The notes: generated by a model from the sequence alone, not told the origin. A stretch of 64,000 bases of DNA from Bacteroidota bacterium (GCA_037133475.1 JBAXOB010000014.1:8298-72297); one strand, 5' to 3'. Positions 8,600 to 48,945 are shown, numbered from the stretch's first letter. Numbers and translations: made by a program.

Positions 8600-8803
8600 C
8601 AAAAAATCAAGGCAGGATAATCTCCTGTTCCATGATCACATCCCTGTTGATCGCTTGTCAGCTCCCGTTTTATTCGTAACCGCACCTGATCACTGTCGGA
8701 CGACATGACACTGATGTTCCCTGTCGATTTTTTTCTGGGTGGTTTTAATGACCACCGAATTCGGAATATTTTCGATGATTTCGACCGTGATGGGCGCATT
8801 TAT
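8600..8803 (-). pseudogene. Probable cupin-domain gene remnant
   Basis: One frame gives APITVEIIENIPNSVVIKTTQKK; after a shift in an A7 run (8728-8734) the next frame gives KKSTGNISVMSSDS. Resembles, from memory, a small Bacteroidota cupin family. No start codon and downstream part decayed. Confidence 0.55.
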
Positions 8804-8905
8804 GGCTGGAAAAATCACCCAAAGGCCGGCAGGAAAAAAACAAACCCTGACCAGTCACTGTGACCCGCCGGCATAAGGGTGACGTTGAAAAAGCAGTTAA
8901 CATTT

Positions 8906-9091
8906 TTAAAGTGATGAGATAATCTTGTGCAATTCCTCCTTCGTTTTTCCAAGCTTTATCTGCAGCCGGCCCAACATTTCATCCTTCTTGCCCGATTCAA
9001 ACATCAGGTCATTATCGGTTAAAGCGGCAAATTTTTGTTTGAGTTTGCCTTTCTGTTCATTCCAGGTCCCTTTTACTTCGGTAGTATTCAT
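8906..9091 (-). CDS. CsbD family general stress protein (copy 1)
   Basis: [41 protein letters not shown] is the CsbD/YjbJ signature. Confidence 0.93.
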
Positions 9092-9128
9092 TTTGTTAAT
9101 TTTTTTTCATGAAAGAATTTTCACGCAG

Positions 9129-9196
9129 CAAAGGTGATTCATTTAAGGCCGGCAATGGTTACACAATTCGGGATAAGAGTTACATCATTCACACAT
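9129..9196 (-). promoter_or_regulatory. Regulon promoter cassette 1 (csbD-1)
   Basis: ATGTGT GAATGATGTAAC-N9-GAATTGTGTAAC-N21-CACCTTTG. Confidence 0.9.
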
Positions 9197-9296
9197 TTGC
9201 CAGGTTTACATAAACCGGAAATGGTATCAAAACCGTTCATGTTGATATTGGTTGTTAATGAAGATGAAGATCGGAAACGGTTTCCGGAGAACTGTC

Positions 9297-9364
9297 ATGT
9301 GGGAATTATATAATTAATCTCCATAATTCTACAAGAAGGAATCAGTTTAATAGCGTTACCTTGA
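9297..9364 (+). promoter_or_regulatory. Regulon promoter cassette 2 (hybrid kinase 9405), divergent copy
   Basis: ATGTGG GAATTATATAAT-N9-TAATTCTACAAG-N21-TACCTTGA; same spacing, weaker match. Confidence 0.65.
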
Positions 9365-9404: not shown

Positions 9405-11936
9405 ATGTTAAACAATAAAAGCCAGGTGGAAACACCGGAAGACCAGACAAAGCTGGCTGACTCTGAAACCCGTTATCGCCGCCTCTTTGAAACGGCCAAG
9501 GACGGAATTCTGATTCTCGATGCCGAAACCGGCATGATCATGGATGTAAACCCGTTTTTAATAGAATTGCTGGGCTATTCCAAGGAACAGTTTATTGAAA
9601 AGGCAATATGGGAGATCGGTTTCTTCAAGGATATCGTGGCAAACCGGGAGAATTTTGCAGAATTACAGGTAAGGGAATACATCCGTTACGAGGATATGCC
9701 GCTTGAAACCGCCGACGGGCGCACGATCCATGTGGAGTTCGTGAGCAATGTCTACCTGGTCGACAAGCAAAAGGTAATCCAGTGCAATATCCGCGACATG
9801 ACCGAACGGGTCAGGGCCGAACTGGCCCTGGTCGTCTCTGAAACGAGATACCGCAGGCTCTTCGAAACAGCCCAGGATGGTATTCTTATCCTGGATGCCT
9901 CAACCGGGATGATCATGGATGTGAACCCGTTTTTAATTGAATTGCTGGGCTATACCAAGGAACAATTAATTGAAAAGGCTATCTGGGAGATTGGCTTTTT
10001 CAAGGATATCGTGGCAAACCAGGATAATTTCATGGAATTACAGCGCCGGGAATATATCCGTTATGAGAACATGCCCCTTGAAACCTCCGACGGGCGAACG
10101 ATTCATGTTGAATTTGTCAGCATTGTTTACCGGGTTGACAAGAAAAAGGTAATCCAGTGCAATATCCGCGACATCACCGACCGGGTCAGGGCTGAACGTT
10201 TTCAGAAACTTTCCAACGTTATCCTGAGGATACTGACCAGCAGCCTGGACCTGGAGAAACGCAGCATGGACATCATAAAGGCAATCCAGGAGGAAACGAA
10301 ATTTTCAGCGGTCGGGATTCGTCTGCAAAACCAGGAGGACTTTCCCTATTTTGTCCAGATCGGCTTTCCCGTTGAACTGATTCAAAGGGAAACCACCCTT
10401 GTTATCAGAGACGGGAAGGGCAGGGTATGCAGAGACAAAGATGGCCGGCAAATATTAGCATGTGCCTGTGGACTGGTACTATCCGGGAACACAGATCCTG
10501 CTTCACCATTTTGCACGGATTCAGGGAGTTTCTGGACAAATGATTCGTCGCAGATGTTATCCCTTCCAACCAACTTTGACCTGATACTTCATCCCCGGAA
10601 CATATGTATCCATGAGGGTTTTGGCTCAATTGCCATCATCCCCATCCTGGCCAATAAAAAAATCGTGGGTGTTCTGCAGCTGAATGAAAAGAAAAAAGGG
10701 GCCTTTACGCATGACATGATCCTCTTTTTTGAAGCGATCTGCCTGATAATCGGAACAGCAATCATGCGCAAGCAAAACACCGACGAACTCCTTATCGCAA
10801 AAGAACACGCCGAAGAGAGCGACCGGCTGAAATCAGCCTTCCTGGCCAACATGAGCCATGAGATCAGGACCCCGATGAACGGGATCCTCGGCTTTGCCGG
10901 GCTGTTGAAAGAGCCGGGGTTAACAGGCGAGGAGCAGGAAAAATACATCAGTATCATCGAAAAAAGCGGTGCCCGGATGCTCAATATCATCAACGACATT
11001 GTGAGCATCTCGAAAATTGAATCGGGGCAGATGGAAGTCTCCTTTTCAAAAACCAATGTAAACCAGCAGATGGAATACATCTATACCTTTTTCAAACCCG
11101 AGGCTGATCGTAAAAACATACAATTCAGGCTGGAAACCTCCTTAACTGCCGAGGATTCTATTATATATTCAGACCAGGAAAAGATAACCGCCATCCTGGT
11201 CAACCTCACCAATAATGCCCTTAAATTCTGCGACACAGGTTCCGTGGAGTTTGGATGCAAAATGAAGGGCAATTTCCTGGAATTCTTTGTGAAAGATACC
11301 GGTATCGGGATACCGGTACCGCGGCAAAAAGCAGTTTTTGATCGTTTTATCCAGGCTGATATCAGCGATAAAAGGGCATTCCAGGGAGCAGGCCTGGGAT
11401 TGTCCATTTCAAAAGCATACGTGGAAATGCTGGGTGGTTCCATAACGCTGGTCAGCGACGAAGGAAGGGGTTCCGAGTTTACCTTTACCATTCTCCATGC
11501 CCCCGAGGATGAATCAGCGGCGCCGAAGATCCAAGCATTCATGCCGGCAATTGAAGAGAACCATATCTCAAACCTCAATATACTGGTAGCAGAAGACGAC
11601 GAAACATCAGGAATTTTGATAAGCCTTGCCATCCGCAACCTGTCCAGGGAAATTTTCAGGGCCTCCAACGGCGCAGAAACCGTGGAGATTTGCCGTGCCA
11701 ATCCTGCAATCGATGTTATCCTGATGGACATGAAAATGCCCGTTATGGATGGATATTCAGCAACCCGGGAGATCCGCAAATTTAATAAAACAGTGGTTAT
11801 CATCGCGCAAACCGCTTACGGGCTTAGCGGCGACAAGGAGAAGGCGCTGGAGGCGGGATGCGACGGCTATATCGCAAAACCCTACAGCAATAATGCGCTG
11901 AGGGCCATACTAAACGTCTGCATGAAAAACAGGTAA
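9405..11936 (+). CDS. Hybrid sensor histidine kinase (PAS-PAS-GAF-HisKA-HATPase-REC)
   Basis: Two near-identical PAS domains, GAF, FLANMSHEIRTPMNGI H-box, DTGIG and GAGLGL G-boxes, receiver AEDD..LMDMKMP..K. Confidence 0.94.
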   Translation: MLNNKSQVETPEDQTKLADSETRYRRLFETAKDGILILDAETGMIMDVNPFLIELLGYSKEQFIEKAIWEIGFFKDIVANRENFAELQVREYIRYEDMPLETADGRTIHVEFVSNVYLVDKQKVIQCNIRDMTERVRAELALVVSETRYRRLFETAQDGILILDASTGMIMDVNPFLIELLGYTKEQLIEKAIWEIGFFKDIVANQDNFMELQRREYIRYENMPLETSDGRTIHVEFVSIVYRVDKKKVIQCNIRDITDRVRAERFQKLSNVILRILTSSLDLEKRSMDIIKAIQEETKFSAVGIRLQNQEDFPYFVQIGFPVELIQRETTLVIRDGKGRVCRDKDGRQILACACGLVLSGNTDPASPFCTDSGSFWTNDSSQMLSLPTNFDLILHPRNICIHEGFGSIAIIPILANKKIVGVLQLNEKKKGAFTHDMILFFEAICLIIGTAIMRKQNTDELLIAKEHAEESDRLKSAFLANMSHEIRTPMNGILGFAGLLKEPGLTGEEQEKYISIIEKSGARMLNIINDIVSISKIESGQMEVSFSKTNVNQQMEYIYTFFKPEADRKNIQFRLETSLTAEDSIIYSDQEKITAILVNLTNNALKFCDTGSVEFGCKMKGNFLEFFVKDTGIGIPVPRQKAVFDRFIQADISDKRAFQGAGLGLSISKAYVEMLGGSITLVSDEGRGSEFTFTILHAPEDESAAPKIQAFMPAIEENHISNLNILVAEDDETSGILISLAIRNLSREIFRASNGAETVEICRANPAIDVILMDMKMPVMDGYSATREIRKFNKTVVIIAQTAYGLSGDKEKALEAGCDGYIAKPYSNNALRAILNVCMKNR
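9462..10196 (+). repeat. Tandem 375-bp intragenic duplication (two PAS domains)
   Basis: TCTGAAAC.. at 9462 and 9837; translated SETRYRRLFETA(K/Q)DGILILDA...VIQCNIRD(M/I)T twice. Confidence 0.9.
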
Positions 11937-12225: not shown

Positions 12226-13491
12226 CTAAATAAACTGGATGCCAATGAGCACCACGGCTGCCACGGTCATCAGCGTAAGCGTGGCAAATCCGAGGAAGTT
12301 GGACCACTTCCCGTTTGTATATTTCCCCATGATCTTCTTGTTGTTGGAGATATGGAGGATAATCGCAATAAGCACAGGCGCGGTAACGCCGTAAAGGATG
12401 GCCGAATAGATCAGCGCCTTGACCGGTGAAATACCCACGTAGTTCAGGGACAATCCCAGCAAAAGAGATACGGCGATAATCAGGTAAAATGCCTTTGCTT
12501 CGTGGAATTTCTTATCCAGCCCCTCTTTCCAGCCAAAAGTTTCGGTAATGATATAGGAAAGCGACCCGCTCAGCACGGGGATGGCCAGGAGCCCGGTTCC
12601 AATCACCCCGAGGGCAAAAAGCAGGTAGGCCGAATTCCCGACCAGGGGCTGCAATGCCCGGGCAGCCTGTTCAACCGTATCTATTTTATGAATCCCGGCG
12701 TTAAAAAGGACCGTCCCGGTGGTAAGGATGATAAAAAACATGACAAGGTTGGAGAAAAGCATGCCGAAGTCGACATCCTGTTTCATTTCGTCCATCACCC
12801 TTTTGTTGACAACCAGCTGCTTCTTCCTGATTTTCCTGTCTTCAACCTCCATTGTTGCCTGCCAGAAGAAGAGGTAGGGCGAAATGGTGGTTCCCAGGAT
12901 GGCGACCAGGATGCTGATAAAGTTTTTATCAAAGATGATTTTCGGGACCAGGGTGGCTTTCAGAATGGCCAGCCAGTCCTGTTTGAATAAAAATGGAATT
13001 ACAAGATAGACAAACAGCGCCAGGCAAAGGTATTTCAGGATTGCTGCCATTTTCCGGTAGGGCAGCAGGATAATGAGTCCCAGCAATAAAAAGGTGAAAA
13101 AGATGCTGAACCATGTTGCATGGATGGTTGGGAACAACAGGTTCCCGACGGCCCCCATGCCTTCAATATCGGCGCCGATGTTTAAAACGATGGCGGGAAA
13201 GCTAAAAAACAGCATTAAATATAAAACGGGTTTTGAATAATTTGACCTGAGGGTTCCTGCCAGGCCATGGGAGGTAACCAGGCCGATCCTGGCGCACATC
13301 TCCTGGATGGAGGCCATGAGTGGGAAGGTGATCAATGCGGTCCAGAGGGTCGATAGCCCATAGGCTGCACCCGCCTGCGAATAGGTTGCAATGCCGGAGG
13401 GGTCATCATCACTCGCGCCGGTAACAAGCCCGGGGCCCAGGATTTTCCAGAACCTGAAAAATTTATTGAAAAGAATTTTCTTAACTGTCAT
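12226..13491 (-). CDS. Nramp-family divalent metal transporter
   Basis: LGPGLVTGASDDDPSGIATYSQAGA, LGTTISPYLFFWQ, about 11 hydrophobic segments. Confidence 0.9.
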   Translation of the reverse strand: MTVKKILFNKFFRFWKILGPGLVTGASDDDPSGIATYSQAGAAYGLSTLWTALITFPLMASIQEMCARIGLVTSHGLAGTLRSNYSKPVLYLMLFFSFPAIVLNIGADIEGMGAVGNLLFPTIHATWFSIFFTFLLLGLIILLPYRKMAAILKYLCLALFVYLVIPFLFKQDWLAILKATLVPKIIFDKNFISILVAILGTTISPYLFFWQATMEVEDRKIRKKQLVVNKRVMDEMKQDVDFGMLFSNLVMFFIILTTGTVLFNAGIHKIDTVEQAARALQPLVGNSAYLLFALGVIGTGLLAIPVLSGSLSYIITETFGWKEGLDKKFHEAKAFYLIIAVSLLLGLSLNYVGISPVKALIYSAILYGVTAPVLIAIILHISNNKKIMGKYTNGKWSNFLGFATLTLMTVAAVVLIGIQFI

Positions 13492-13533: not shown

Positions 13534-13941
13534 CTATGTTCGTCCGGATACCGGCGAACCAGGGAGTTGTTTTCTCCTGAAAAGGCCCAGGATCGCCCTG
13601 CCCGCTGAAACAACCAGGTCAGGATGATTCTCAATGGCATTGGTGACACTCACCAGCACCGCATCACCGGCCAGCCTCCTGAAAGGGCTTTTCGTCATGC
13701 CGGCAACAACCTTCCTGGCAAGATAACCTGCCGTCAGCCCTACCATGGTGTACAGCAGGCTTCCCTTTCCCTCCTGGCTTGCGGTGCCGCCCTGCACGAA
13801 GTCCCGGAGCATGTTCACCGGCTGCAAGGTTTCAAACAGCGTCATCAGGTCGGCATTAAGCACCTGTTTTTCCGCTGCGCGCCTCTGTTCAAGCCGGGTA
13901 ATAGCTTCCCGCAGACCGGTCAGCGTATCGATATTTTGCAT
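13534..13941 (-). CDS. Hypothetical protein (YqjK-like position after the holin-like gene)
   Basis: 135-aa ORF in operon; N-terminal coiled coil plus a hydrophobic helix. Confidence 0.75.
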   Translation of the reverse strand: MQNIDTLTGLREAITRLEQRRAAEKQVLNADLMTLFETLQPVNMLRDFVQGGTASQEGKGSLLYTMVGLTAGYLARKVVAGMTKSPFRRLAGDAVLVSVTNAIENHPDLVVSAGRAILGLFRRKQLPGSPVSGRT

Positions 13942-13948
13942 GATCAGG

Positions 13949-14290
13949 TTATTGAAGTACTTGTTTAATAATAAAATCCCCGGCGGCTTTTTTTATCTTC
14001 TTCCGCAGGAAAATATGAAGGAAACCTGCAGCCACAAGGTAAAAGGCAGCTACGATGAACAGTCCATACCAGTTTTTACCCAGCATTTCACCCAGGAAAA
14101 GGGCAACCGCCGCACTCAGTAAAAGGAAAAACATGGAAACCAGGAGCCATACGCACAGCCTTGGGATCAGGGAGGCCACTATTCGTGTTAACGCCTCCAG
14201 TAACCTGAATTTTGAAAGTTCAAAAGTTGTAGCACTAAATGCTTCTACGCGTTCCATTAAACGTTCGACTGAGTTTTCCCGGATTTCCAT
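13949..14290 (-). CDS. Phage-holin-like (YqjE/DUF1469-type) membrane protein
   Basis: TTFELSKFRLLE followed by two TM helices, WYGLFIVAAFY; follows YtxH. Confidence 0.8.
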   Translation of the reverse strand: MEIRENSVERLMERVEAFSATTFELSKFRLLEALTRIVASLIPRLCVWLLVSMFFLLLSAAVALFLGEMLGKNWYGLFIVAAFYLVAAGFLHIFLRKKIKKAAGDFIIKQVLQ

Positions 14291-14308
14291 ATTTTTCTTT
14301 TTAGCCTG

Positions 14309-14578
14309 TTATTTCCGCCCCTCTTCGACGGCCTCTTCAACTTTCAATTTTCCTTTGTCCGCCATCATCCTGGCCACTTTTTCAACAGAGTCGAATTTGA
14401 CCTTGATACTTTCGATAAAGTCATTGAACTTCTCCCCGATTTCATCGGTATACTCATCGCTTTTACGCGAGATTTTTCTTCTTGTCGATGATCCTCTTGC
14501 CGGGGCAAAAAGAATCCCCAATGCAGCGCCGGCGGCAACGCCTGCCAGCACACCTAATACTACTTTTCCTGAACGCAT
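14309..14578 (-). CDS. YtxH domain general stress protein
   Basis: GVAAGAALGILFAPARGSSTRRKI signature. Confidence 0.92.
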   Translation of the reverse strand: MRSGKVVLGVLAGVAAGAALGILFAPARGSSTRRKISRKSDEYTDEIGEKFNDFIESIKVKFDSVEKVARMMADKGKLKVEEAVEEGRK

Positions 14579-14597: not shown

Positions 14598-15158
14598 TTA
14601 TTTATTTTTTCCTTTATCATTCCCGTGATTATCCTTCTTGTCATGATCGTGACCCGGGGGTGAGCCATTGTCATGGCCATGCTGATCGCTGTTATGGCTG
14701 TCGTGACCGCCATTGTCCCTGTTTTCATGATTGGTTTCATGGGGCCTGTTTTCCCCCTGGTTTCCCCTCCCCGGCCGTTCACCGATGGTTTTCTGCGGGT
14801 GGCCGTGGTATCCCTTGGCATATCTCCCTTTATATTCCCTGAAATGGGTGTATGGGGTATTTCCGTGGTAATCATTCATCACAACTTTATACCCGCCGTA
14901 GAGGTCATAATTCTTATACCTCGCCGGGAGATAGGAGCGGTGAATCCATGCTCCGTCGCCATAATAGATAAACATGGAGGCATTAATATCGTAAAAGGCC
15001 TCCACGTCAGGCAGGTAGTAATAATGCGCCTCTGCGACCCCCGAGGGTCCCCACATCGGAGGGGCACCAAGGTTCAAACTCACCGAGAATTGCGCCTTTC
15101 CCTCCGCCTGTGCAAAAAACAACACCAGGCTGAAGAGGAATAGTTTTAGAAATTTCAT
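14598..15158 (-). CDS. Secreted hypothetical protein with His/Asp/Asn-rich tail
   Basis: Signal peptide; PPMWGP..YYYLPDVEAFYD motif; low-complexity C-terminus. Confidence 0.8.
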   Translation of the reverse strand: MKFLKLFLFSLVLFFAQAEGKAQFSVSLNLGAPPMWGPSGVAEAHYYYLPDVEAFYDINASMFIYYGDGAWIHRSYLPARYKNYDLYGGYKVVMNDYHGNTPYTHFREYKGRYAKGYHGHPQKTIGERPGRGNQGENRPHETNHENRDNGGHDSHNSDQHGHDNGSPPGHDHDKKDNHGNDKGKNK

Positions 15159-15180
15159 CCTATTGGTTTTTATAATCCGG

Positions 15181-15621
15181 TTATTTTACATTTTTGACGG
15201 TCAGGTCCTTGAATGCCTTGCCCAGTTCATCCATATCATGGCTGAATTCAGCCTTGAAACTCTGCCATTGCGCTTTCCCATTGGCCTGGTAACCTGCCAT
15301 TTTCATCTTCATTTCGGCATTTTTCTGTTCCAGTACGGCGATTCTCCTGTTGTAGTCAGCCTTCACGGCATGCTTATCCTGCGCGATACTCGCCTTTAAA
15401 TCGCTCAGGGCCTTGTCATTGGCTGCAATCCGCTCAGCGGTCTCCTTTTTATAGCTTTCCACATCGGCAAGGTATTCCTTGTTTGCCTGGTCCAGCTCCT
15501 TATTTGCCTGTGATACCTTATCCTGGGCATTATCCACCTTTTCGGCAGATGTAGTACATCCGGTCATGAGCGCACCTGCCAGTAACATGCCTGCCGCGAG
15601 TGCAAAAATTGTTTTTTTCAT
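15181..15621 (-). CDS. Coiled-coil lipoprotein
   Basis: Lipobox LMTGC; helical body ending WQSFKAEFSHDMDELGKAFKDLT. Confidence 0.85.
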   Translation of the reverse strand: MKKTIFALAAGMLLAGALMTGCTTSAEKVDNAQDKVSQANKELDQANKEYLADVESYKKETAERIAANDKALSDLKASIAQDKHAVKADYNRRIAVLEQKNAEMKMKMAGYQANGKAQWQSFKAEFSHDMDELGKAFKDLTVKNVK

Positions 15622-15703
15622 AGTTTGATTTGTTATTGGTTAAAATTGTTGTAAAGTGGCTGTCGTGAAATTCGTTGCAGCCTGCCGGGCAACCTGCCCG
15701 GTG

Positions 15704-15889
15704 CTACAGGGATGCTATGATCCTGTTCAACTCCTCCTTGGTTTTCCCAAGCTTGACCTGGAGCCGCCCGATCATCTCATCCTGCTTGCCTGCTTCAAAC
15801 ATCACATCATTATCGGTTAACACCGCGAATTTTTGCCTGAGCCTTCCTTTATGTTCATTCCAGGTTCCCAGTACTTCAGTCGTATTCAT
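15704..15889 (-). CDS. CsbD family general stress protein (copy 2)
   Basis: MNTTEVLGTWNEHKGRLRQKFAVLTDND; close paralog of 8906-9091. Start set at the matching Met, downstream of cassette 3. Confidence 0.92.
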   Translation of the reverse strand: MNTTEVLGTWNEHKGRLRQKFAVLTDNDVMFEAGKQDEMIGRLQVKLGKTKEELNRIIASL

Positions 15890-15919
15890 GTTTGGTTTTT
15901 TATATGTTTTTGGATATTG

Positions 15920-15987
15920 CAAAGGTGAGATTATGTTCAAGGGAATTTGTTACACTACTTTGGCAATTAGTTACATGATTCACACCT
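15920..15987 (-). promoter_or_regulatory. Regulon promoter cassette 3 (csbD-2...Nramp operon)
   Basis: AGGTGT GAATCATGTAAC-N9-AAGTAGTGTAAC-N21-CACCTTTG. Confidence 0.9.
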
Positions 15988-16034: not shown

Positions 16035-16655
16035 TCACAGGGCCTTTACTGTCGGTAATTTCATAAGCACTTCGGGAACCAGTTGCATGGTCAGTCCCTC
16101 CTGGCCCAGGTTGGTGAGTTCCACCTCGCAGGTAATGGAAACCTCCTCGCCTACCATGATGCCACCTGCCTCCATGGCAGTCGTCCACACCAATCCCCAA
16201 TCGCTCCTGTTCACCTTCCCGGTCACGGTAAACCCGGCCTTTTCATTTCCCCAGGGATCATTAACGATTCCGCCGAACTGCACCATTAGCATTACATTTT
16301 TGGTGATCCCCCGCATGGTCAGTTCACCCCACATTTCATGGTTTCCCTCCTTGTCTGTTTTTCCGATGGAGATGGAGGTGAAGGAGATCTGCTTATGTGT
16401 TTCAACATCAAAGAAATCAGCGCTTTTTAAATGTTCATCACGTTTTGCATCGCCCGTACTGATGGAGGATGCATCGATCCATAGGTCAATTTCTGCCGTG
16501 GTGAAGTCTTTCCCACGGGTATAGATGCTGGCATCAAAGGTCCGGAAGGAACCTCTGACACTGGTAATCCTTAAATGCCTTACTTTAAAGGCAAGTTCAC
16601 TATGAGCCTGGTCGATCGACCACCTGGTTTTGGAAGTAACGTTCGTATTTTTCAT
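16035..16655 (-). CDS. yceI: YceI family polyisoprenoid-binding protein
   Basis: WSIDQAHSELAFKVRH..RDEHLKSADFFDV..GELTMRGITK..DPWGN. Confidence 0.92.
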   Translation of the reverse strand: MKNTNVTSKTRWSIDQAHSELAFKVRHLRITSVRGSFRTFDASIYTRGKDFTTAEIDLWIDASSISTGDAKRDEHLKSADFFDVETHKQISFTSISIGKTDKEGNHEMWGELTMRGITKNVMLMVQFGGIVNDPWGNEKAGFTVTGKVNRSDWGLVWTTAMEAGGIMVGEEVSITCEVELTNLGQEGLTMQLVPEVLMKLPTVKAL

Positions 16656-16715: not shown

Positions 16716-16783
16716 CAAAGATGGGTTGCCCCTGCTTGTGAAGTGTTATATAAATATGGGATTAAGTTGCAACATTCACACAT
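16716..16783 (-). promoter_or_regulatory. Regulon promoter cassette 4 (yceI)
   Basis: ATGTGT GAATGTTGCAAC-N9-TATTTATATAAC-N21-CATCTTTG. Confidence 0.87.
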
Positions 16784-18956: not shown

Positions 18957-19024
18957 CAAAGGTGTGCCCGTCGCGGGCAGTTTGTGTTACAAAATGTTGT
19001 AAATAACTTGCAATATTCACACCC
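18957..19024 (-). promoter_or_regulatory. Regulon promoter cassette 5 (BON-ohyA)
   Basis: GGGTGT GAATATTGCAAG-N9-ACATTTTGTAAC-N21-CACCTTTG. Confidence 0.85.
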
Positions 19025-19184: not shown

Positions 19185-19252
19185 ATGTGTGAATCATGCA
19201 AAGTATTTACAGATTTCTGTAACACTTTCAAGGGCGGGCATCCCTAGTTTTG
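19185..19252 (+). promoter_or_regulatory. Regulon promoter cassette 6 (mlaEFD-AI-2E)
   Basis: ATGTGT GAATCATGCAAA-N9-GATTTCTGTAAC-N21-TAGTTTTG. Confidence 0.9.
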
Positions 19253-38289: not shown

Positions 38290-38293
38290 CCTT

Positions 38294-42256: not shown

Positions 42257-43315
42257 TTATTTGCCTCCTAAACGTTTGTAAATCATAGCCGAGATCCCGC
42301 TGACGAACGCTGTCTGTTTTTCGATGTGATTCCCGCGGGTCATGATGGTGAGGATATAGGGGGAATTATGGGCGTAAATGATGCCTGATTCTGAAAAGTC
42401 CATCACACCATTAATACCTCTTTCCCCGAATTTATGAGCAACGACGGTGCCTTCGGGCAGTTCTTTTACGAGCCCTTCCCTGAAACTGCTCTCCGTCAGG
42501 AGTTTCAGTCCGTATTCCGAAAGCTCTTCGTTGACAAAAGTTGCATTGTAAAGTAACCTGAAAAACTTCGAATACTGCCGCGGCGAAATTGAATAGACTA
42601 AATCGCCCGGTTCATAGTATGGGATATCGATATCCTTGAAAAACTCGCGGTACTGACTGGTGTCCATATGGCAGTTCAGCAAATAGGTGGCGTTATTGTC
42701 CGATTCGTCGATCATATACCTGAGGAGCCTGGCAACCGGGTACTTCCGACCGGGAATAATAGAATCTCCTTTGTATTTCTGCGTCGGGAAGCTGATACTC
42801 GCCTTCTCGTATACGAATTCCTTTTTTAAGGTTCCCGGGTGGAGTTCCTCCTGCTTCAGGTAATAGAGCAGGATGGGCAGTTTCATGAGACTTCCGGGAT
42901 GGTAATCATGGTTCCCGAACATACTCGTCCAGAAGCCGGAATTCATGTCCTTCACATAAACCGATGCGGCGGTGATCATGCCGGTATTTTCTGCCTGCTC
43001 GATGAATGCGGCAATATCGGCTTTAAGGGATGAGAAAGCTTCCGATTCCGACTCCGATTCGGCAAGAAGCAGCGGGCGTGTGTACTTATCGTGCGCATCT
43101 GCAAGCCGGATGATCGCCAGGGAACACGGGCTGCTGGTGAAATGCTGGCTGGCCGCGCGATTTGCGGCCCGTGATGCCTTGATTATGAAGAAAACATTGG
43201 ATGCCAGTAGGATGAGGAGGAGCCCTGAAAACAGGACAACAATGCTTCTGAACCTTTTCAAAGATTTTTTGGTGGCAGTTTCACCATCCGGGAGATGATG
43301 ATGTGTTTGTCGCAT
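42257..43315 (-). CDS. Class A beta-lactamase-like serine hydrolase (membrane anchored)
   Basis: SLMK (SxxK), SDN, AHKFG (KTG variant), N-terminal TM. Confidence 0.85.
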   Translation of the reverse strand: MRQTHHHLPDGETATKKSLKRFRSIVVLFSGLLLILLASNVFFIIKASRAANRAASQHFTSSPCSLAIIRLADAHDKYTRPLLLAESESESEAFSSLKADIAAFIEQAENTGMITAASVYVKDMNSGFWTSMFGNHDYHPGSLMKLPILLYYLKQEELHPGTLKKEFVYEKASISFPTQKYKGDSIIPGRKYPVARLLRYMIDESDNNATYLLNCHMDTSQYREFFKDIDIPYYEPGDLVYSISPRQYSKFFRLLYNATFVNEELSEYGLKLLTESSFREGLVKELPEGTVVAHKFGERGINGVMDFSESGIIYAHNSPYILTIMTRGNHIEKQTAFVSGISAMIYKRLGGK

Positions 43316-43506: not shown

Positions 43507-44373
43507 TTAATCCAGGTGGTAGATCAAGGTCACGCCTGCGCCCACATGACTCACAGGGAGAACCTTTAATTTCTTAAGGTGGTTGTTCATGATCGTCCGC
43601 CCGATGGCAAATCCCAGCGCCGATCCTACAAACACGTCGGAGAACCAGTGATCGTTCTGGTAAACGCGTGAGGCTGCGGTAAACCCGGCAAAAGAGAAAC
43701 AAAGAATGGGCACCCAGATGGTCTTGCTGTAGGAGGTGGCAACGACCGTGGCTATGGCAAAGGCAACCGTAGAATGTCCCGACGGAAATGAGCTGTTGGT
43801 TTTAAGGGTAAACGGCCCGTCCCATAAATTGGGATTTGGTGGATTATCCTCGTAGGGCCGGTGTCGCTGGGTAAGTTGTTTCAGCACCTCGGCGGCAACA
43901 AAACCCAGCACATAGGCCTCCACTCCTTTCAGTGCCGTATACCGGGCCTTGTCATTTTTGGTAATTGCCCCGACCCCGTATAAGATGCCCAGTGCCGGGA
44001 TACTGTAGAAGCCGCTTCCCAGCCTTTCAAATCCGTATTTTGCAGCCTGATCCAGGAATTGGGTATGGGATAACTGAACTGCTTTCTGAATCCTGGCGTC
44101 CTGGGTGAAGAGTACCGCGGTGACAAGCACGACACCTGAAGCGGCCATCCACTGGTATTTGTTCCACCTGTAAGGTGCAATGGCAATATCCCTTGAATCG
44201 GTCAGCCACGATTTGAAATAGGCCTTGTCGGGAATGGTCGAAAGCGTCCGTTCATTTTTAGGGATCGCCCGCAGCCTGACATAGGAGGTATCCTCCTGCG
44301 CCATTATGTTAACACCAGAGATAAAAAAAAAGACAATAACGATGATAGGGGCGATTTTCATTCGTGTCAACAT
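43507..44373 (-). CDS. PAP2 family phosphatase
   Basis: KQLTQRHRP, SFPSGH, SRVYQNDHWFSDV. Confidence 0.92.
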   Translation of the reverse strand: MLTRMKIAPIIVIVFFFISGVNIMAQEDTSYVRLRAIPKNERTLSTIPDKAYFKSWLTDSRDIAIAPYRWNKYQWMAASGVVLVTAVLFTQDARIQKAVQLSHTQFLDQAAKYGFERLGSGFYSIPALGILYGVGAITKNDKARYTALKGVEAYVLGFVAAEVLKQLTQRHRPYEDNPPNPNLWDGPFTLKTNSSFPSGHSTVAFAIATVVATSYSKTIWVPILCFSFAGFTAASRVYQNDHWFSDVFVGSALGFAIGRTIMNNHLKKLKVLPVSHVGAGVTLIYHLD

Positions 44374-44405: not shown

Positions 44406-44473
44406 CAAAAATAACATTTCCTTCAGGTTATTGTATTATATAATTCCGGTTGAATTTTACATAATTCACACAT
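44406..44473 (-). promoter_or_regulatory. Regulon promoter cassette 13 (PAP2)
   Basis: ATGTGT GAATTATGTAAA-N9-GAATTATATAAT-N21-TATTTTTG. Confidence 0.9.
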
Positions 44474-44542: not shown

Positions 44543-44728
44543 TCAGACATGAATATTCATCAGGTAGGCAAAAAGTCCGAAAACCTTGAGCAGCCATACG
44601 ATCACCACAACCACGACCACAACGTTGAAGATCCTTTTTATCTTGATATCCATCGGTATGTAGGAGTTGACGAGCCAGAGCAGCACTCCGACGACGATCA
44701 GTACGATTAATATTGTAAACAGTGGCAT
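44543..44728 (-). CDS. Thivi_2564-like small membrane protein, 61 aa
   Basis: MPLFTILIVLIVVGVLLWLVNSYIPMDIKIKRIFNVVVVVVVIVWLLKVFGL; start downstream of cassette 14. Confidence 0.87.
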   Translation of the reverse strand: MPLFTILIVLIVVGVLLWLVNSYIPMDIKIKRIFNVVVVVVVIVWLLKVFGLFAYLMNIHV

Positions 44729-44751: not shown

Positions 44752-44819
44752 CAAAGGTACAGGTCAGAAAGCCGGCAAGTGTTACATAACAAAATGAATA
44801 ACTTACATCATTCACACAT
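44752..44819 (-). promoter_or_regulatory. Regulon promoter cassette 14
   Basis: ATGTGT GAATGATGTAAG-N9-TTGTTATGTAAC-N21-TACCTTTG. Confidence 0.9.
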
Positions 44820-44864: not shown

Positions 44865-47237
44865 TCAATGGACCAGGGCCCTGCTATTCCTTTTCCGCTC
44901 CCGGCGATATTTTTCCCTTGGCGGAAACTGGTTTAATTCATTCAACCTTTCGTAGGCTCTCAGTACCGATCGCGGGAACACCCCATGATAACTGATCCTG
45001 TAAAAAGAAAATCCATTATAGGGGATGACATTAACTGCCGCTGACATCTCAATCCTGTCTGCCACTTTCCTGCTTCTGAAAACTGAATAAAAAACCTCCG
45101 AGCGCCGGTGGTTCAACTCGCGGAACCTGTTATTTATCAAGGATGAATCGATAATCCTGGCATATTTTTCCTGGTTGGTGCAGAGTGCGGGGTCGTGGGT
45201 CTGGCTGTTTAAATACTGCAAAAAGCGGGGATCCTGCGGCGACAACCTGTCCACAGTTTCTGAATCATGTTCATTGAAGGTCCTGCTGGTTTTTTGACTG
45301 GCCGCCAGGAAATACTTTTTCTTTGCTTCAAAAAACAGGATATACTCCTTTTCCCTGGCATCGTACTGGTGCGGTTCAACAGAAACTACCGATCCGGGAT
45401 TTTCGGCAAGGAAGTCCGCCATTTTTATCATAAATTTTTTCTGCCTGTCGCTCAGTGAGTACTGGCGCATCTGCCATTTCAATGTGAGCGACTTTTCAAT
45501 TTCAGTCTCAAGGCTACTGACCTCCATCCGGTAAGGCGTGGTGAGCGGTTTTATAAAAATATTTTTAACAAGATCGGCCAGGATATCCCCCAGGTGGAAT
45601 TCAGGGACCTTCAGGTTTCCTGTTATCGGAATTTCATAGTCAATCACATTCCCCTTTTCACGGATTAATGACATGATAACGGTGAGCGGAAGCCATGTGA
45701 TGCCCCCGTTCTTCAAATGACCTGCAACCCGCGGGTCAATGATCACCAGGTGGTTATTGCTTTGGATGATCCCCTTCCTGACTTTCCACGACCCATTGAT
45801 TTCCAGGCTCCCCCTGTCAACAGGAAAGGAGGTGTAGGTGACCAGGTAGGGGTTAAACATGGCGACAGGCAGTTGCTGAAGGTGATATTGCAGATCAAAA
45901 TCGGTGCTGTCGCGGGGGTTTACTTTTAGGGTGACCATGGCATTGCCATATGGCAGAATCCCTGATTTAACAACCACATCAATCCATTTTTGCCTCTTAT
46001 AAACAGAATCGGCCGTTATCTCCAGCGGGCTTAACTCAACTGAAAATTTCTCGAAGGGTTTGTAGTCGTTGAATTTAACATCCCCCCTGCAAATTTCAAA
46101 CCTGTTGATCCTGTAGTTGCTCTGGAAAAAGTTCGCCGACAGCATTTTAATATAGCGGCCTATTTCAATGACAAGATTAAACCGGGCAGGATCTGAAATT
46201 ACCCGGTTCATTTTTCCAGCGCTGCTGTCAAAGATAACCTGCAGGTTATTAAGCTTTTCATAGTGTTCGAATTTGAAAATGGGGTGAATGAGCGATACGG
46301 TATCGAACTGGTATTGATGTTTGCCGGGGTTAATGTTGATAATTGACAGGCTGAGGCGGTCAAAGGAAAACAGGTCATCACTCCGGTTTTTCCCAAAATG
46401 AAAATCATTGATGGCCATCCGGCCTGCGGCCGAGAGATTTTGTTCATCCTTCAGGTTACCGGTTGCCTTCAGATCGACGTCGAGGTTGGCGGTGAACTTG
46501 CCGCCACTGACCAGGTCACGGAGGTACTGACCAATGAGGTTCAGGTCGAATTTACGGGCGATAACCCGGTACCGGTAATCCATTGTCCTGAAATTTATGG
46601 TAAAATCGCCCCTGATATCTCCTGCCCCGATACCGGGCTGAAGGGCAAACTTTGCCGCCAGGGTGTCGGCATTCCACCTTTTCCCGGTACTTTCGATATT
46701 TACGTGACGGATAAAATAGTCGACCGGAACCTGCCGTTCGTGAAAATAAAATTCACCTTCGGTAATGTTAACATGGAGAAAATTAAGATGGACCGCCGAA
46801 GAAGTTTTACGCTTTTTCGACGGGGTAAACCTGGTTACCAGGTCACTGAAATTAAAATCCTTTTTATCCATGAAAACCGTTCCCCTGGGCTTGTCGAGGT
46901 CGAGTTCAGTTATTTCAACAATTTTATGGAAGAGCTGATGCAGGGAGAACGTTGCGCTTAGCCCATTCGCCGTAAAAAAAAGGCTGTCGGCCGGCCGTCC
47001 TACATTCCACTTCGTTGATTCATAAATCTTAAGGTTGCTGATATGGACATAGCCGGTAAACGGATTCACATAAATCCAGCCCGTGGTGATTTTCCTTCCC
47101 GTTACCTCTTCATCATAACGTCCGACCAGGTACGCGGCCAATGGGGATGCCACGATGATAACAACCACAAAGAGAACTGTAACGGTACAGATCAGGATCG
47201 CAACCGATTTTATCAACCTGGATTTCGTAAATTTCAT
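44865..47237 (-). CDS. DUF748 (AsmA-like) protein
   Basis: N-terminal TM, VNPFTG, FNFSDL, IDYEIPITGNLKVPEF. Confidence 0.82.
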   Translation of the reverse strand: MKFTKSRLIKSVAILICTVTVLFVVVIIVASPLAAYLVGRYDEEVTGRKITTGWIYVNPFTGYVHISNLKIYESTKWNVGRPADSLFFTANGLSATFSLHQLFHKIVEITELDLDKPRGTVFMDKKDFNFSDLVTRFTPSKKRKTSSAVHLNFLHVNITEGEFYFHERQVPVDYFIRHVNIESTGKRWNADTLAAKFALQPGIGAGDIRGDFTINFRTMDYRYRVIARKFDLNLIGQYLRDLVSGGKFTANLDVDLKATGNLKDEQNLSAAGRMAINDFHFGKNRSDDLFSFDRLSLSIININPGKHQYQFDTVSLIHPIFKFEHYEKLNNLQVIFDSSAGKMNRVISDPARFNLVIEIGRYIKMLSANFFQSNYRINRFEICRGDVKFNDYKPFEKFSVELSPLEITADSVYKRQKWIDVVVKSGILPYGNAMVTLKVNPRDSTDFDLQYHLQQLPVAMFNPYLVTYTSFPVDRGSLEINGSWKVRKGIIQSNNHLVIIDPRVAGHLKNGGITWLPLTVIMSLIREKGNVIDYEIPITGNLKVPEFHLGDILADLVKNIFIKPLTTPYRMEVSSLETEIEKSLTLKWQMRQYSLSDRQKKFMIKMADFLAENPGSVVSVEPHQYDAREKEYILFFEAKKKYFLAASQKTSRTFNEHDSETVDRLSPQDPRFLQYLNSQTHDPALCTNQEKYARIIDSSLINNRFRELNHRRSEVFYSVFRSRKVADRIEMSAAVNVIPYNGFSFYRISYHGVFPRSVLRAYERLNELNQFPPREKYRRERKRNSRALVH

Positions 47238-47319
47238 TGGCGGTGGTATCGTCATCATTGCCGGATGGCCATGCGGTTACAGGATTACCCCCTGACAGGG
47301 GCCAAAGCCTAGCGACCTA

Positions 47320-48210
47320 TTATTTCAGGGCCAGCTGGCGGCCTGTTCCCAGTTTCCAGTGTACACTCACCCCAACTTCATCAGGAGAAGTAGTGAGACC
47401 AAGGGCAAGATACCTGCTGCAGGGAACCTTGTGTAATGCCGGCACCACGATCCCGATAACGGCGCCCAGCACAAAACCAACGGCAACATCCGAGGGGAAG
47501 TGATCCAGCGATTTTATCCGCGCATAACCTATAGCAAGAGGCGGTACCGATGCAGCAAGGTACAGGAGATATTTAACCGCCCCGATATTGGGATGATAAT
47601 CGCAATAGGCCTTGACCATAAAAAAGGTGCTGTAGGTGCACGATCCGACATGCCCGCTGAAAAATGAATTGCGGCTGTTGTTGTTCGCACGGACATCGTG
47701 GGCAAGGTCGGTATAATACACAACCGGGCGATAACGGTTGATGAAGGTTGGTCCGAACGGGCTGTAATTGTACATACTAAAGGTTACCGTGTGCCCCTCC
47801 ACGTAAATTAACAACAGGTCCAGCCAGTCCCGGCGCATATTTTTATCAATCATCAGCAGGCTGGGAAGCAGGAAAATACCAATCTCCCCGTAATCCGATA
47901 TTTTCTTGAATAATGGGCGGTCTGCCGGATTCTGCTGCAACGACCACCTGTCAATTGAGTTCAGTAAATTTCTCTGCAATTCCAGGTTTTTTGGAAGAAG
48001 TTCCTCATCGGTAACAGCTAATTTGTTTTTCAGGCGGCTGATGGCAAAAAAATCTCCTGCCATCCCCACGCCAATAATACTGCCTGTTACGATGTAGTTG
48101 ACACGATACACTTTTGCTTTTTTTACAACTGTTTTCGTTGAATCGGAAGATTGGCAAAAAATTCCCAGGGGAATGAAAATGACCGCAAAAAAAATGACCA
48201 GGGCTTTCAT
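47320..48210 (-). CDS. PAP2 family phosphatase
   Basis: RYRP, SFFSGH, ARIKSLDHFPSDV. Confidence 0.9.
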   Translation of the reverse strand: MKALVIFFAVIFIPLGIFCQSSDSTKTVVKKAKVYRVNYIVTGSIIGVGMAGDFFAISRLKNKLAVTDEELLPKNLELQRNLLNSIDRWSLQQNPADRPLFKKISDYGEIGIFLLPSLLMIDKNMRRDWLDLLLIYVEGHTVTFSMYNYSPFGPTFINRYRPVVYYTDLAHDVRANNNSRNSFFSGHVGSCTYSTFFMVKAYCDYHPNIGAVKYLLYLAASVPPLAIGYARIKSLDHFPSDVAVGFVLGAVIGIVVPALHKVPCSRYLALGLTTSPDEVGVSVHWKLGTGRQLALK

Positions 48211-48324
48211 AAGGTATAGTGCAAATTATGGGTGAATTTGCCGACGGCTACCTGGTGCCTGCGATCAGTTGCAATGGAAAAAATAATATTCAAACCAACT
48301 GCGGACAGGATAGGTCAACAGGTG

Positions 48325-48392
48325 CAAAGATGCAGCGGAATGGTTAAAGGAGTGTTACACAACTTTGAATGAAAGTTGCATCATTCACACAT
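48325..48392 (-). promoter_or_regulatory. Regulon promoter cassette 15 (PAP2-DUF748), overlapping the araC-2 stop codon
   Basis: ATGTGT GAATGATGCAAC-N9-AAGTTGTGTAAC-N21-CATCTTTG; AAT GTG TGA encodes Asn-Val-stop of araC-2. Confidence 0.92.
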
Positions 48393-48945
48393 TTTCGAGG
48401 GCGCTCCGCTTTTTTGTTTTGAGCGACTTAAAAAAGGAGGGCGTCAGGCCGGTCACCTTTTTAAACTGGTGGGAAAGATGCGCCACACTGCTGTAATGCA
48501 GTTTCCAGGCAATTTCGGAAAGGTTAAGCTCGTCGTAGATGATCAGCTCTTTTACCCTTTCAATTTTATGAAGGATCATAAAATGTTCAATGGTAATCCC
48601 TTTGGTTTCGGAAAAGATATTGGCAAGATAGGTATAATCGTAATCCAGTTTTTCGCACAGGTAATCTGAAAAATTCGTTTTTGGCAGTTCATCGGAATAA
48701 TGAATCATTTCAATAATGACATTCTGAATTTTTTCAATCAGGATGGCCTTTTTATCGTCCATCAGTTCAAGCCCCGATCTTCGTAAGGCAATTTTCAGTT
48801 GTTCACGCTGCTGTTCAGAAATATCTTCCATAACCTCAACTGTTCCCAGATCCACGGTAAGATGGTGCAGTCCCATTTTTTTCAATTCCTCCTTTACCAC
48901 CATTTTACAACGGATGCTTACCATGTATTTGATATAGAGCCTCAT
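48385..48945 (-). CDS. AraC family transcriptional regulator (paralog 2)
   Basis: MRLYIKYMVSIRCKMVV..LSEIAWKLHYSSVAHLSHQFKKVTGLTPS; highly similar to 32752-33321. Confidence 0.93.
   Translation of the reverse strand: MRLYIKYMVSIRCKMVVKEELKKMGLHHLTVDLGTVEVMEDISEQQREQLKIALRRSGLELMDDKKAILIEKIQNVIIEMIHYSDELPKTNFSDYLCEKLDYDYTYLANIFSETKGITIEHFMILHKIERVKELIIYDELNLSEIAWKLHYSSVAHLSHQFKKVTGLTPSFFKSLKTKKRSALENV

Follow-up and report, generated by a model that had tools for sequence, protein, structure and literature searches.

The island and its repeated cassette

The DNA analyzed here is a stretch of 64,000 nucleotides from a Bacteroidota bacterium (GCA_037133475.1, JBAXOB010000014.1:8298-72297), referred to below as the window. 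Positions 8600-48945 of the window hold an island of about 40 kb with about 45 stress and cell-envelope genes in about 15 transcription units, and three further units lie elsewhere in the genome. The units are preceded by copies of a 36-nt cassette, which we read as an activator-dependent promoter of the primary sigma factor. The cassette regulon is probably switched on by two paralogous AraC-family proteins encoded in the island, AraC1 and AraC2, as judged from sequence comparison. An initial annotation had described this span as a candidate general stress response island run by AraC rather than by an alternative sigma factor. The limits it gave fit the island, whose first gene is a csbD and whose last is araC2 (Table 1).

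Gene families were assigned by Pfam and NCBIfam profile searches, and operon membership was inferred from strand and spacing only. All the families that the initial annotation had named were found on the same strand downstream of a cassette, namely two CsbD, YtxH, PF07332 'Holin-X', BON, YceI, lmo0937/DUF5670, Usp (universal stress protein, USP), two AI-2E, MlaE/F/D, two PAP2, DUF748, Nramp and a CbpA-like DnaJ beside a CbpM-like MerR_2 protein. The island has in addition an Ice_binding/PKD protein with a type IX secretion system (T9SS) tail, two OmpA-family proteins, DUF6600, MCRA, an sll1863-family lipoprotein, a P-type ATPase and a Beta-lactamase2 protein. The absence of sigma-factor genes that had been remarked on extends to the whole contig of the window, since all 19 PF04542 matches of the genome lie on other contigs. 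Among the window open reading frames (ORFs) scanned there was no sigma, anti-sigma or PhyR-like domain, no dedicated search for anti-sigma families having been made.

Repeat finding over the whole window gave four families (D4, D5, D9 and D11) of 31-47 nt, with 5-9 scattered copies on either strand. They are one element once each copy is read in the direction of the adjoining gene, TGTGAATnATGyAAC-N15-TGTAAC, or with its flank aaTG-TGTGAAT-nA-TGyAAC-N15-TGTAAC. The pattern TGTGAATNNTRYAA-N16-TRTAA, with at most one mismatch, has 14 matches in the 64-kb window; in 100 dinucleotide-preserving shuffles the mean was 0.00 and the maximum 0. A weight matrix of 40 positions (35.8 bits), trained on the 14 window copies, was run on both strands of the whole assembly (4,610,539 bp, 96 contigs). 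Seventeen matches reached 40 bits, 14 of them in the window and three on other contigs, the genome outside the window amounting to about 4.55 Mb. The next-best score in the genome, 25.6 bits, belongs to a site before the HK1 kinase gene of the island, and all remaining scores are 15.8 bits or less. The three copies outside the window precede, respectively, a gene for a putative outer-membrane protein followed by DUF3943, a gene for a secreted protein of about 220 aa, and a gene for an 83-aa protein.

The cassette is real, far beyond chance, and is a conserved predicted site. Conservation is confined to the motif positions, the N15 spacer and the flanks being unrelated between copies, so the copies resemble binding sites and not copies of a mobile repeat. 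The mobile-element reading was rejected on this ground and because the window has no tRNA and the ORFs scanned no integrase or transposase domain; the GC content of the island (0.45-0.53), close to that of the flanks, is a further point against it. Every copy is directed at a gene that starts about 50-110 nt downstream. From 8906 to 48945 each gene belongs to a co-directional string downstream of a copy, apart from AraC2, which has none upstream.

Table 1. Cassettes and genes of the island, with positions counted from the first nucleotide of the window
Feature	Position	Strand	Score, basis or remark
Cassette 1	9158..9193	-	52.0 bits
Degenerate cassette-like site, before HK1	9300..9335	+	25.6 bits; 5 mismatches; sole intermediate score in the genome
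Cassette 2	15949..15984	-	47.0 bits
Cassette 3	16745..16780	-	50.0 bits
Cassette 4	18986..19021	-	42.3 bits
Cassette 5	19188..19223	+	50.2 bits; divergent from cassette 4
Cassette 6	25675..25710	-	48.7 bits
Cassette 7	29199..29234	-	42.1 bits
Cassette 8	29255..29290	+	45.5 bits; divergent from cassette 7
Cassette 9	31021..31056	+	52.4 bits
Cassette 10, before AraC1	32532..32567	+	43.8 bits; weaker variant TGTGAATTATACAA...TGTAAA
Cassette 11	36753..36788	+	48.2 bits
Cassette 12	44435..44470	-	42.4 bits
Cassette 13	44781..44816	-	47.7 bits
Cassette 14	48354..48389	-	51.1 bits; distal TGTGAAT holds the AraC2 TGA stop codon
Unit 1: csbD copy 1	8906..9091	-	Pfam CsbD E 3.8e-13; first gene behind cassette 1
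HK1, hybrid histidine kinase, PAS-PAS-GAF-HisKA-HATPase-REC	9405..11936	+	Pfam
Unit 2: Nramp transporter	12226..13491	-	Pfam Nramp E 2.6e-76; last of a 7-gene string
Unit 2: 135-aa protein	within 13534..14578	-	no family match; between the PF07332 gene and Nramp
Unit 2: PF07332 'Holin-X' membrane protein	13949..14290	-	Pfam
Unit 2: YtxH	14309..14578	-	Pfam
Unit 2: 186-aa His-rich secreted protein	within 14598..15892	-	no family match; 3' of the sll1863-family lipoprotein
Unit 2: sll1863-family lipoprotein	15181..15621	-	NCBIfam NF052504 E 1.1e-10
Unit 2: csbD copy 2	15704..15892	-	Pfam; first gene behind cassette 2
Unit 3: YceI-like protein	16035..16655	-	Pfam YceI E 2.9e-43
Unit 4: MCRA / oleate-hydratase family protein	16796..18430	-	Pfam MCRA E 6.7e-201; after the BON gene
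Unit 4: BON-domain protein	18453..18905	-	Pfam BON E 3e-22
Unit 5: MlaE, MlaF (ABC ATPase), MlaD, AI-2E transporter	19275..22888	+	Pfam
Unit 6: secreted Ice_binding-like/PKD/Ig protein with T9SS sorting tail	22978..25683	-	Pfam Ice_binding E 2.3e-68, Por_Secre_tail; listed start overlaps cassette 6, true start probably further in
Unit 7: OmpA-family beta-barrel protein	25815..27995	-	Pfam
Unit 7: DUF6600 protein	27946..29136	-	Pfam
Unit 8: OmpA-like coiled-coil protein, then 221-aa protein	29317..30855	+	Pfam OmpA E 7.7e-19; 221-aa protein without family match
Unit 9: lmo0937-family/DUF5670 small membrane protein	31126..31281	+	NCBIfam NF033488 E 2.1e-16
Unit 9: second AI-2E transporter	31321..32421	+	Pfam
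Unit 10: AraC1, HK2, single-domain receiver	32752..36571	+	Pfam
AraC1, HMA-like N-domain and AraC DNA-binding domain	32752..33321	+	Pfam HTH_18 E 2.8e-16
HK2, hybrid kinase: PAS, coiled-coil repeats, PAS, HisKA, HATPase, REC, Hpt-like end	33352..36036	+	Pfam, translation
Single-domain response regulator, conserved C-terminal helix	36137..36571	+	Pfam Response_reg E 3.7e-17
Unit 11: 119-aa protein, first gene	from 36823	+	Pfam scan; no family match
Unit 11: USP	37190..37681	+	Pfam; a 62-aa ORF between USP and DnaJ
Unit 11: CbpA-like DnaJ (DnaJ and DnaJ_C)	38195..39187	+	Pfam; no zinc-finger match
Unit 11: CbpM-like MerR_2 protein	39197..39496	+	Pfam
P-type cation ATPase	39700..42222	+	Pfam; 204-nt gap before it, membership of unit 11 uncertain
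Beta-lactamase2 family protein	42257..43315	-	Pfam; 192-nt gap, membership of unit 12 uncertain
Unit 12: PAP2 phosphatase	43507..44373	-	Pfam
Unit 13: 61-aa two-helix membrane protein	44543..44728	-	translation; no Pfam family
Unit 14: DUF748 protein	44865..47258	-	Pfam
Unit 14: PAP2	47320..48210	-	Pfam
AraC2, HMA-like N-domain and AraC DNA-binding domain	48385..48945	-	Pfam HTH_18 E 5.5e-14; model pLDDT 93.1

Promoter layout and the AraC-family proteins

Each window copy of the cassette is followed by ccTTTGc, with an A-nn-TTTG box at a distance of 24-25 nt. Among 154 cassettes of other taxa, TTTG begins 25 nt (90 cassettes) or 24 nt (14 cassettes) after TGTAAC, which makes 104 of the 154; an A stands four bases before TTTG in 94%, and the base preceding it is C in 60% and T in 22%. 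The sigmaA -7 box of Flavobacterium psychrophilum, TAnnTTTG, occupies positions -12 to -5, and a CGT box is the mark of extracytoplasmic function (ECF)-type promoters (PMC9723704). If TTTG is set at -8 to -5 after this sigmaA box, the proximal TGTAAC would occupy about -39 to -34, with the distal unit lying at about -69 to -55. The proposal of a primary-sigma promoter in the initial annotation is supported by the fixed position of A-nn-TTTG in those 104 cassettes and by its fit to the sigmaA box and not to the ECF CGT.

The cassette can be divided into two 15-nt direct repeats, TGTG-N5-TGyAAC, which are 6 nt apart, have a start-to-start period of 21 nt and span about -69 to -34. In some cassettes of other genomes the distal half-site reads TGTGATA or TGTGATT instead of TGTGAAT. 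The -33 TTTG element is absent, and the pair of repeats would stand in its place, upstream of a slightly off-consensus -7 box, cA-nn-TTTG, that the primary sigma factor would read. Repeats of 15 nt, 6 nt apart and ending near -35, are the layout of XylS at Pm and of other class II AraC/XylS activators. Scans for sigma-70-type promoters and for terminators were set aside because their consensus does not apply to this phylum; they gave 23 promoter-like sites (22.6 in shuffles) and 23 terminators (24.7) over 8500-28499, and 43 (27.3, sd 5.7) and 28 (23.5) over 29000-48999.

Only three island proteins match a DNA-binding domain: AraC1, AraC2 and the CbpM-like MerR_2 protein. The two AraC proteins share 70% identity over 186 residues. 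Both match Pfam HTH_18 and HTH_AraC above cut-off, in keeping with the domain of about 100 aa, C-terminal and with two helix-turn-helix (HTH) motifs, that characterizes the AraC/XylS family. An alignment profile matches the AraC domains of YesN, XylR, AraC, SoxS, GadX and MarA in the PDB. In the AlphaFold model (pLDDT 93.1) a linker helix joins a beta-alpha-beta-beta-alpha-beta domain to a seven-helix AraC domain. In Foldseek searches AraC domains rank first (YesN, AraT, GadX, MarA, Rns, ToxT; target-normalised TM 0.72-0.84). The N-terminal domain of the model has a fold like that of heavy-metal-associated (HMA) domains, with strands at residues 2-6, 28-32, 35-38 and 60-62 and helices at 11-23 and 44-56. 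Its resemblance to the metallochaperones Atx1, CopZ and GolB is weak (Foldseek E about 0.1), and profile matches to the HMA domains of Cu-ATPases have E values of 1.5e-4 and 5.6e-4.

The metal motif of HMA domains, MxCxxC in the first loop, is not preserved in the island proteins, which read YMVSIRC and so have a single Cys; the N-terminal consensus of the wider family is NMVCxRC (72-sequence alignment). Distant paralogs, of 35-43% identity, keep CxxC (CSCC or CPRC), and in two genomes of another family (G064 and G059) such a paralog adjoins a P-type ATPase, which suggests a metal-responsive parent family. The island type, having lost the first Cys, thus looks like an offshoot of a metal-sensing HMA-AraC family. 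Among the candidates scored the family comprises more than 8000 clusters at 90% identity, and 514 clusters at 50% identity have E of 1e-30 or less. The genome studied here has a third HMA-AraC paralog (contig C1:12040-12585; L090 6035-6592), 37% identical and with C-S-C-C intact, in a cassette-free neighborhood. The distant CxxC paralogs were also considered as readers of the cassette in genomes without the island-type AraC, and TGTAA-N16-TGTAA was sought beside L007, L088, L090 and L091 with nothing convincing found.

The two araC genes differ in their upstream regions. AraC2, which no cassette precedes, has a TAATTTTG box, a match to TAnnTTTG, about 100 nt before its ATG. Its last codons and TGA stop (...N V stop, window 48385-48393) are at the same time the AATGTGTGA of cassette 14, the coding sequence and the distal half-site overlapping. 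AraC1 follows cassette 10, and variants of the cassette 10 type also precede AraC1-type genes elsewhere (G009 and G033).

The pairing of AraC with the cassette was followed across genomes. In a set of 41 (our own genome, 24 of the genus and 16 of the order; close orthologs defined by a best E of 1e-75 or less), 15 of the 16 genomes with a close AraC ortholog have at least 10 cassette matches (10-33 each). Of the 25 without one, 13 have no matches, 11 have 1-5, and one (G016) has 18; the reversed pattern gave 0-2 matches per genome. The co-occurrence that the initial annotation had put forward as a check is seen for AraC and the cassette (15/16 against 1/25), with exceptions such as G016. In a phylum sample of 301 genomes at least 90% complete, the exact cassette pattern occurs in 18 of 33 genomes with an AraC of at least 60% identity, in 6 of 69 with a distant relative only and in 4 of 199 with none. 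The reversed pattern matched two genomes.

With one genome per species, 565 stretches encode an AraC relative, and the best 80 of the 565 (70-95% identity) were scanned for cassettes. They come from Bacteroidales, Chitinophagales, Cytophagales, Flavobacteriales, Sphingobacteriales, Balneolales, Melioribacteraceae and Kapaibacteriota; 24 are of the AraC1 type, with a kinase downstream, and 56 of the AraC2 type. The 1.30 Mb around them hold 155 matrix matches of at least 30 bits, with at least one match in 52 of the 80 loci. In half of the AraC2-type loci (28/56) the stop codon of AraC2 and a cassette overlap. Of 144 cassettes of other taxa that lie at most 10 kb to either side of AraC, 10 have AraC itself as the first gene behind them, which suggests autoregulation. 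Two Balneolaceae-like genomes (G147 and G087) have just two sites each when searched with a relaxed pattern extended to the -7 box, both at most 2.1 kb downstream of AraC.

Next to AraC1 the island encodes the hybrid kinase HK2 and a single-domain receiver, an operon that is conserved, HK2 being present in 31 and the receiver in 30 of the 80 loci. The aligned receiver orthologs (27 loci) are 64-82% identical, and the invariant columns of their alignment (A3) include two aspartates of the LVDDD motif together with D57 and K112. A prediction of the complex of AraC2 with the receiver, run without controls, scored 0.01 against a mark of 0.32 and weighs neither way. The other kinase, HK1, shows no signal or membrane segment at its N-terminus when inspected by eye. 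Both kinases contain internal repeats. In HK1 a 375-nt duplication (window 9453-10127; 82% identity over 300 nt) yields two near-identical PAS modules. Five tandem 63-nt repeats in HK2 (window 33653-34062; 65-91% identity) encode 21-aa coiled-coil units of the KRAQELIIANKELAFQNDEKE type between the PAS domains, and their copy number could tune the distance between sensor domains.

In the circuit that we propose, AraC1 and AraC2 would be the activators, one protomer on each repeat contacting RNA polymerase in class II activation. AraC2 would be synthesized constitutively from what appears to be its own consensus -7 box. The weaker cassette of AraC1 would also serve a cytoplasmic PAS hybrid kinase (HisKA-REC-Hpt-like) and the single-domain receiver, and since this unit sits behind a cassette, activation would feed back on the sensory module. 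Binding of the cassette by AraC, class II activation, the control of AraC by kinase and receiver, and the inducing conditions are what we infer. The comparative argument for the pairing of AraC with the cassette is fairly strong, and we regard the pairing as probable. The whole model, an AraC-activated primary-sigma regulon, is one that we favor with some caution.

Function of the regulon and the binder of the cassette

The predicted products include the general-stress effectors CsbD (two copies), YtxH, BON, USP, the lmo0937 family, PF07332 and the CbpA/CbpM-like DnaJ/MerR_2 pair, the envelope and lipid proteins MlaEFD, PAP2, DUF748, OmpA and oleate hydratase, an ice-binding-like protein, and transporters. 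Such a set is consistent with a protective role at low water activity, in the cold and in stationary phase. CsbD, YtxH and lmo0937 are targets of SigB in Firmicutes; YjbJ, OsmY, YqjDEK and CbpAM are targets of RpoS in Escherichia coli; CsbD is also a target of EcfG in Alphaproteobacteria. The dedicated alternative sigma factor of such responses was not found here, the contig having no sigma-70 gene and the promoter box fitting sigmaA as defined in F. psychrophilum.

Taken together, the ice-binding, lipid and envelope genes are as suggestive of cold, freezing or drying as of a general response. The regulon might accordingly serve a narrower programme of cold, freezing, desiccation or surface remodeling, a question of function and not of the regulator. 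The ancient core would then be AraC2, ice-binding-like secreted proteins and PAP2, other stress genes having been recruited later in some lineages. In a locus from a Balneola metagenome-assembled genome (L034 10553-14944), a cassette at the AraC stop codon is followed by an ice-binding-like gene, and a second cassette by two more, of which the final one carries a T9SS tail; the two units are separated by a small cupin ORF. The cassettes of G147 and G087, the two genomes with two sites beside AraC, match in sequence those of L034 and L040. Because both sites drive ice-binding-like proteins, the ancestral role may be narrower than general stress, a point that weighs against the broader function. 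Cassette numbers range from 2 to 33 per genome, which suggests that the regulon has grown in some lineages.

The first genes behind the 144 cassettes near AraC bear on the same question, with the reservation that a tally limited to 10 kb on each side is biased towards neighbors of AraC. Ice_binding is the commonest (11), and then come AraC and CsbD (10 each), PAP2 (9), Cupin_2 (6), receiver (5), DUF5670 (5), outer-membrane protein barrels (4), BON (3), OmpA (3), DUF3943 (2), DUF6600 (2) and fatty-acid desaturase (2). PAP2 and the desaturase agree with a narrower programme, as do the ice-binding-like protein, oleate hydratase, MlaEFD and two PAP2 of the window island. However, CsbD, the lmo0937 family (DUF5670) and BON are recurrent first genes as well, and USP, CbpA/M, YceI and YtxH are not cold-specific. 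We see the narrower programme as a real possibility, if not the one we would choose.

The AraC reading has its own difficulties, which are best taken together. The whole support for AraC as the binder is comparative, and its co-occurrence with the cassette is partly automatic because AraC is encoded inside the island. The Hpt-like C-terminal segment of HK2, which was read by eye from the motif HKMIPSFAIMG, gave no Pfam match. In the phylum sample, 15 of the 33 genomes with an AraC of at least 60% identity had no exact cassette, and a relaxed pattern, applied to five of these, gave no match in one and only an unconvincing one in another. The 8 LytTR regulators and 19 sigma-70-family proteins that the genome encodes on other contigs are further possible binders. 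Finally, four genomes have cassettes, and no island-type AraC was found in them. G016, of the same genus (94% complete, 160 contigs), has 18 pattern matches with correct -7 boxes, and its cassettes precede csbD, DUF748, PAP2, OmpA, YtxH, Nramp, AI-2E, MlaEFD and USP. Its AraC relative is only a 38%-identical paralog of the CxxC type, and no receiver ortholog was found in it. Three genomes of another family (G054, G059 and G064; 92-98% complete) have 20 cassette matches above 24 bits in the stretches scanned around their pattern matches (L089, L092 and L100-L112), hold only the 35-43%-identical paralog, and likewise yielded no receiver ortholog. An assembly gap could explain G016, where the operon may be unassembled because the cassette-bearing contigs are short; the other three are harder to explain that way. 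The claim that AraC runs the island is partly supported, by the AraC-type regulators that the island encodes and by their link with the cassette in many taxa, and is weakened by these four genomes.

The cassettes checked in G064 and G059 precede, among others, DUF748, BrkB and an OmpA-family protein, and kinase, PAS and receiver domains recur among the ORFs near the cassettes of G054, G059 and G064. Two ORFs there have SpoIIE (PP2C phosphatase) domains and three have rubrerythrin domains; because PP2C phosphatases are typical of partner switches, a different control circuit may operate in these genomes. In G016 the genes for a CheB-CheR-PAS fusion, for a PAS protein and for an HWE/HisKA_2 kinase all lie behind one cassette (L004 5185-10094, L006 10015-13283), and Ku and LigD, of end-joining repair, lie just upstream of a cassette-driven csbD (L004/L006). 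A DNA-binding regulator was sought near the G016 cassettes and none was found.

A regulator encoded outside the island (LytTR, another AraC-family protein or another factor) could bind the cassette, AraC1, AraC2, the kinases and the receiver being members of the regulon or local modulators. The persistence of intact cassettes before the same kinds of genes in the four genomes without island-type AraC or receiver would then be explained, and AraC1, lying itself behind a cassette, is a target. LytTR is one candidate in view of the 8 LytTR genes elsewhere in the genome, and LytTR sites, two 9-nt direct repeats 12 nt apart, usually with a LytTR regulator gene close by, also have a 21-nt period. 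The period fits, but only the GTT core is common to the repeat and the LytTR consensus, and the contig has no LytTR gene. When the 8 LytTR and 19 sigma proteins of the genome were used in tblastn searches of about 130 kb around the cassettes of G016, G064 and G059, neither a LytTR nor a sigma gene was found. LytTR matches occur in only 10 of the 80 AraC loci, a count inflated because the queries included receiver domains, and sigma matches in 8. No transcription-factor family recurs among the 123 ORFs near the cassettes of G054, G059 and G064, and the only two cassette matches in G147 and in G087 adjoin AraC. An outside binder therefore seems unlikely to us.

That the element is an alternative-sigma promoter, with TGTAAC as -35, ccTTTG as -10 and no activator needed, is very improbable: a conserved hexamer ending in AAC at a fixed spacing from a downstream box and the 19 sigma-70-family genes of the genome speak for it, but TGTAAC is about 19 nt from cA-nn-TTTG (25 to TTTG) where ECF promoters have 16-17 nt between an AAC-ending -35 and a CGT -10, the second, upstream repeat (21 nt) and TGTGAAT have no role in such a promoter, no sigma gene was found on the contig of the window or near the cassettes of G016, G064 and G059, and A-nn-TTTG, without the ECF CGT, fits the sigmaA -7 box described in F. 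psychrophilum.

Relation to known systems

An AraC-activated primary-sigma regulon would have relatives among several known systems. XylS at Pm, RhaS, MelR and AraC at I1-I2 are likewise two-HTH AraC-family regulators that work with the primary sigma factor, and in the XylS-Pm class two direct repeats of about 15 nt with a 21-nt period have the proximal repeat abutting the promoter element upstream. Unlike that class, the island proteins, for which binding is predicted only, have a 62-residue HMA-like N-terminal domain in place of a cupin or ligand-binding one; the promoter is of the Bacteroidota -33/-7 type, and at least 17 stress and envelope promoters are involved instead of one catabolic operon. 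MarA, SoxS and Rob are small AraC-family activators that, with the primary sigma factor, serve a dispersed stress regulon through an asymmetric site at a fixed distance from the promoter. MarA and SoxS, however, bind one site as monomers and have no sensor domain, whereas here there are two repeats and an HMA-like domain, and the targets of all three concern efflux and redox, whereas here they are of the general-stress and envelope kind and are clustered in one island.

The acid fitness island of Escherichia coli, with GadX and GadW, is also a contiguous stress island with paralogous AraC-family regulators of its own, and GadX (3mkl) is a fold match. It differs in needing RpoS and GadE, in serving one stress and in having no single repeated cassette. 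The regulons of sigmaB, RpoS and EcfG-PhyR overlap with the island in the CsbD/YjbJ, YtxH, BON/OsmY, lmo0937, USP, CbpA/CbpM and PF07332 (YqjE-like) families, and the cytoplasmic PAS kinases with a single-domain receiver nearby resemble the inputs of the alphaproteobacterial EcfG/PhyR system. Unlike in those systems, no alternative sigma, anti-sigma or PhyR gene was found in the island, and the -7 box is one for the primary sigma. In the same phylum, hybrid two-component systems with an AraC domain join kinase, receiver and AraC domain in one pathway; the AraC search also matched long frames of about 1370 aa, and a PDB profile match was to 12aw, 'HYBRID TWO-COMPONENT SYSTEM PROTEIN'. In the island, by contrast, the AraC protein (186 aa), the hybrid kinase and the lone receiver are encoded separately. 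The kinases, which have PAS domains, appear to be cytoplasmic and do not resemble periplasmic sugar sensors, and the targets are not polysaccharide utilization loci.

AraC-family stress regulons with the primary sigma are already known from MarA/SoxS/Rob and GadX/GadW, so the kind is not new. A literature search, conducted outside subscription journals and supplements, found no description of the cassette, the regulator or the regulon. The regulon is real and probably new. As far as the literature was searched, the new elements are the HMA-derived AraC subfamily, the cassette and its spread over many orders of the phylum and over related lineages, the conserved AraC-kinase-receiver operon, and the recruitment of effectors of the general-stress type.

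To our knowledge, no master regulator of the general or water-stress response has been defined for Bacteroidota, which are prominent in soil, freshwater, marine and gut communities. We offer tentatively, as an idea that may well prove wrong, that in Bacteroidota and their relatives in the Fibrobacteres-Chlorobi-Bacteroidetes (FCB) group (Balneolales, Ignavibacteriota, Kapaibacteriota) an HMA-derived AraC pair with a universal cassette, fed by a cytoplasmic phosphorelay from a PAS hybrid kinase to a lone receiver, could be a master switch for stress that does without an alternative sigma factor or a partner switch. The regulon would have grown from two promoters of ice-binding-like proteins to more than 30, and the single conserved Cys (C13) of the degenerate HMA domain could let the activator itself sense redox state or metal. 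If true, the protective proteins that sigmaB, RpoS and EcfG control elsewhere would have been recruited convergently into another kind of regulatory circuit, and the cassette would show clearly how a regulon can expand from 2 promoters to more than 30. A cis-element of about 36 bits predicts regulon members from sequence in many of the species sampled, and a candidate regulator family (the 514 clusters at 50% identity) and a conserved sensory operon are further handles. The cassette could also serve as a stress-responsive promoter part in a phylum with scarce genetic tools. The hypothesis is testable at the bench because there are cultured carriers among the related loci: Ferruginibacter sp., Emticicia aquatilis, Arcicella rosea, Pontibacter humidus, Algoriphagus sp., Ferruginibacter lapsinanis and Solitalea koreensis.

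Some minor features of the window may be added. The flanks of the island, in which there is no cassette, encode LpxD, a peptidase, a BACON/T9SS protein, MscL, glycogen-related enzymes, a DEAD-box helicase and a NarL-type two-component pair. MscL (52422-52856) and the DEAD-box helicase (58367-59503), which are often stress-related, thus lie just outside the island. Within the island, the DUF6600 gene has three tandem 60-nt repeats (window 28019-28211, family D7; 93-95% identity) that encode a Gln/Pro-rich stretch. The HK1 and Nramp genes converge, and the gap between their ends (window 11975-12190) is densely packed with 8- and 9-nt tandem units of the CATTCCTG and CATTGTCTG types (families D2 and D8).

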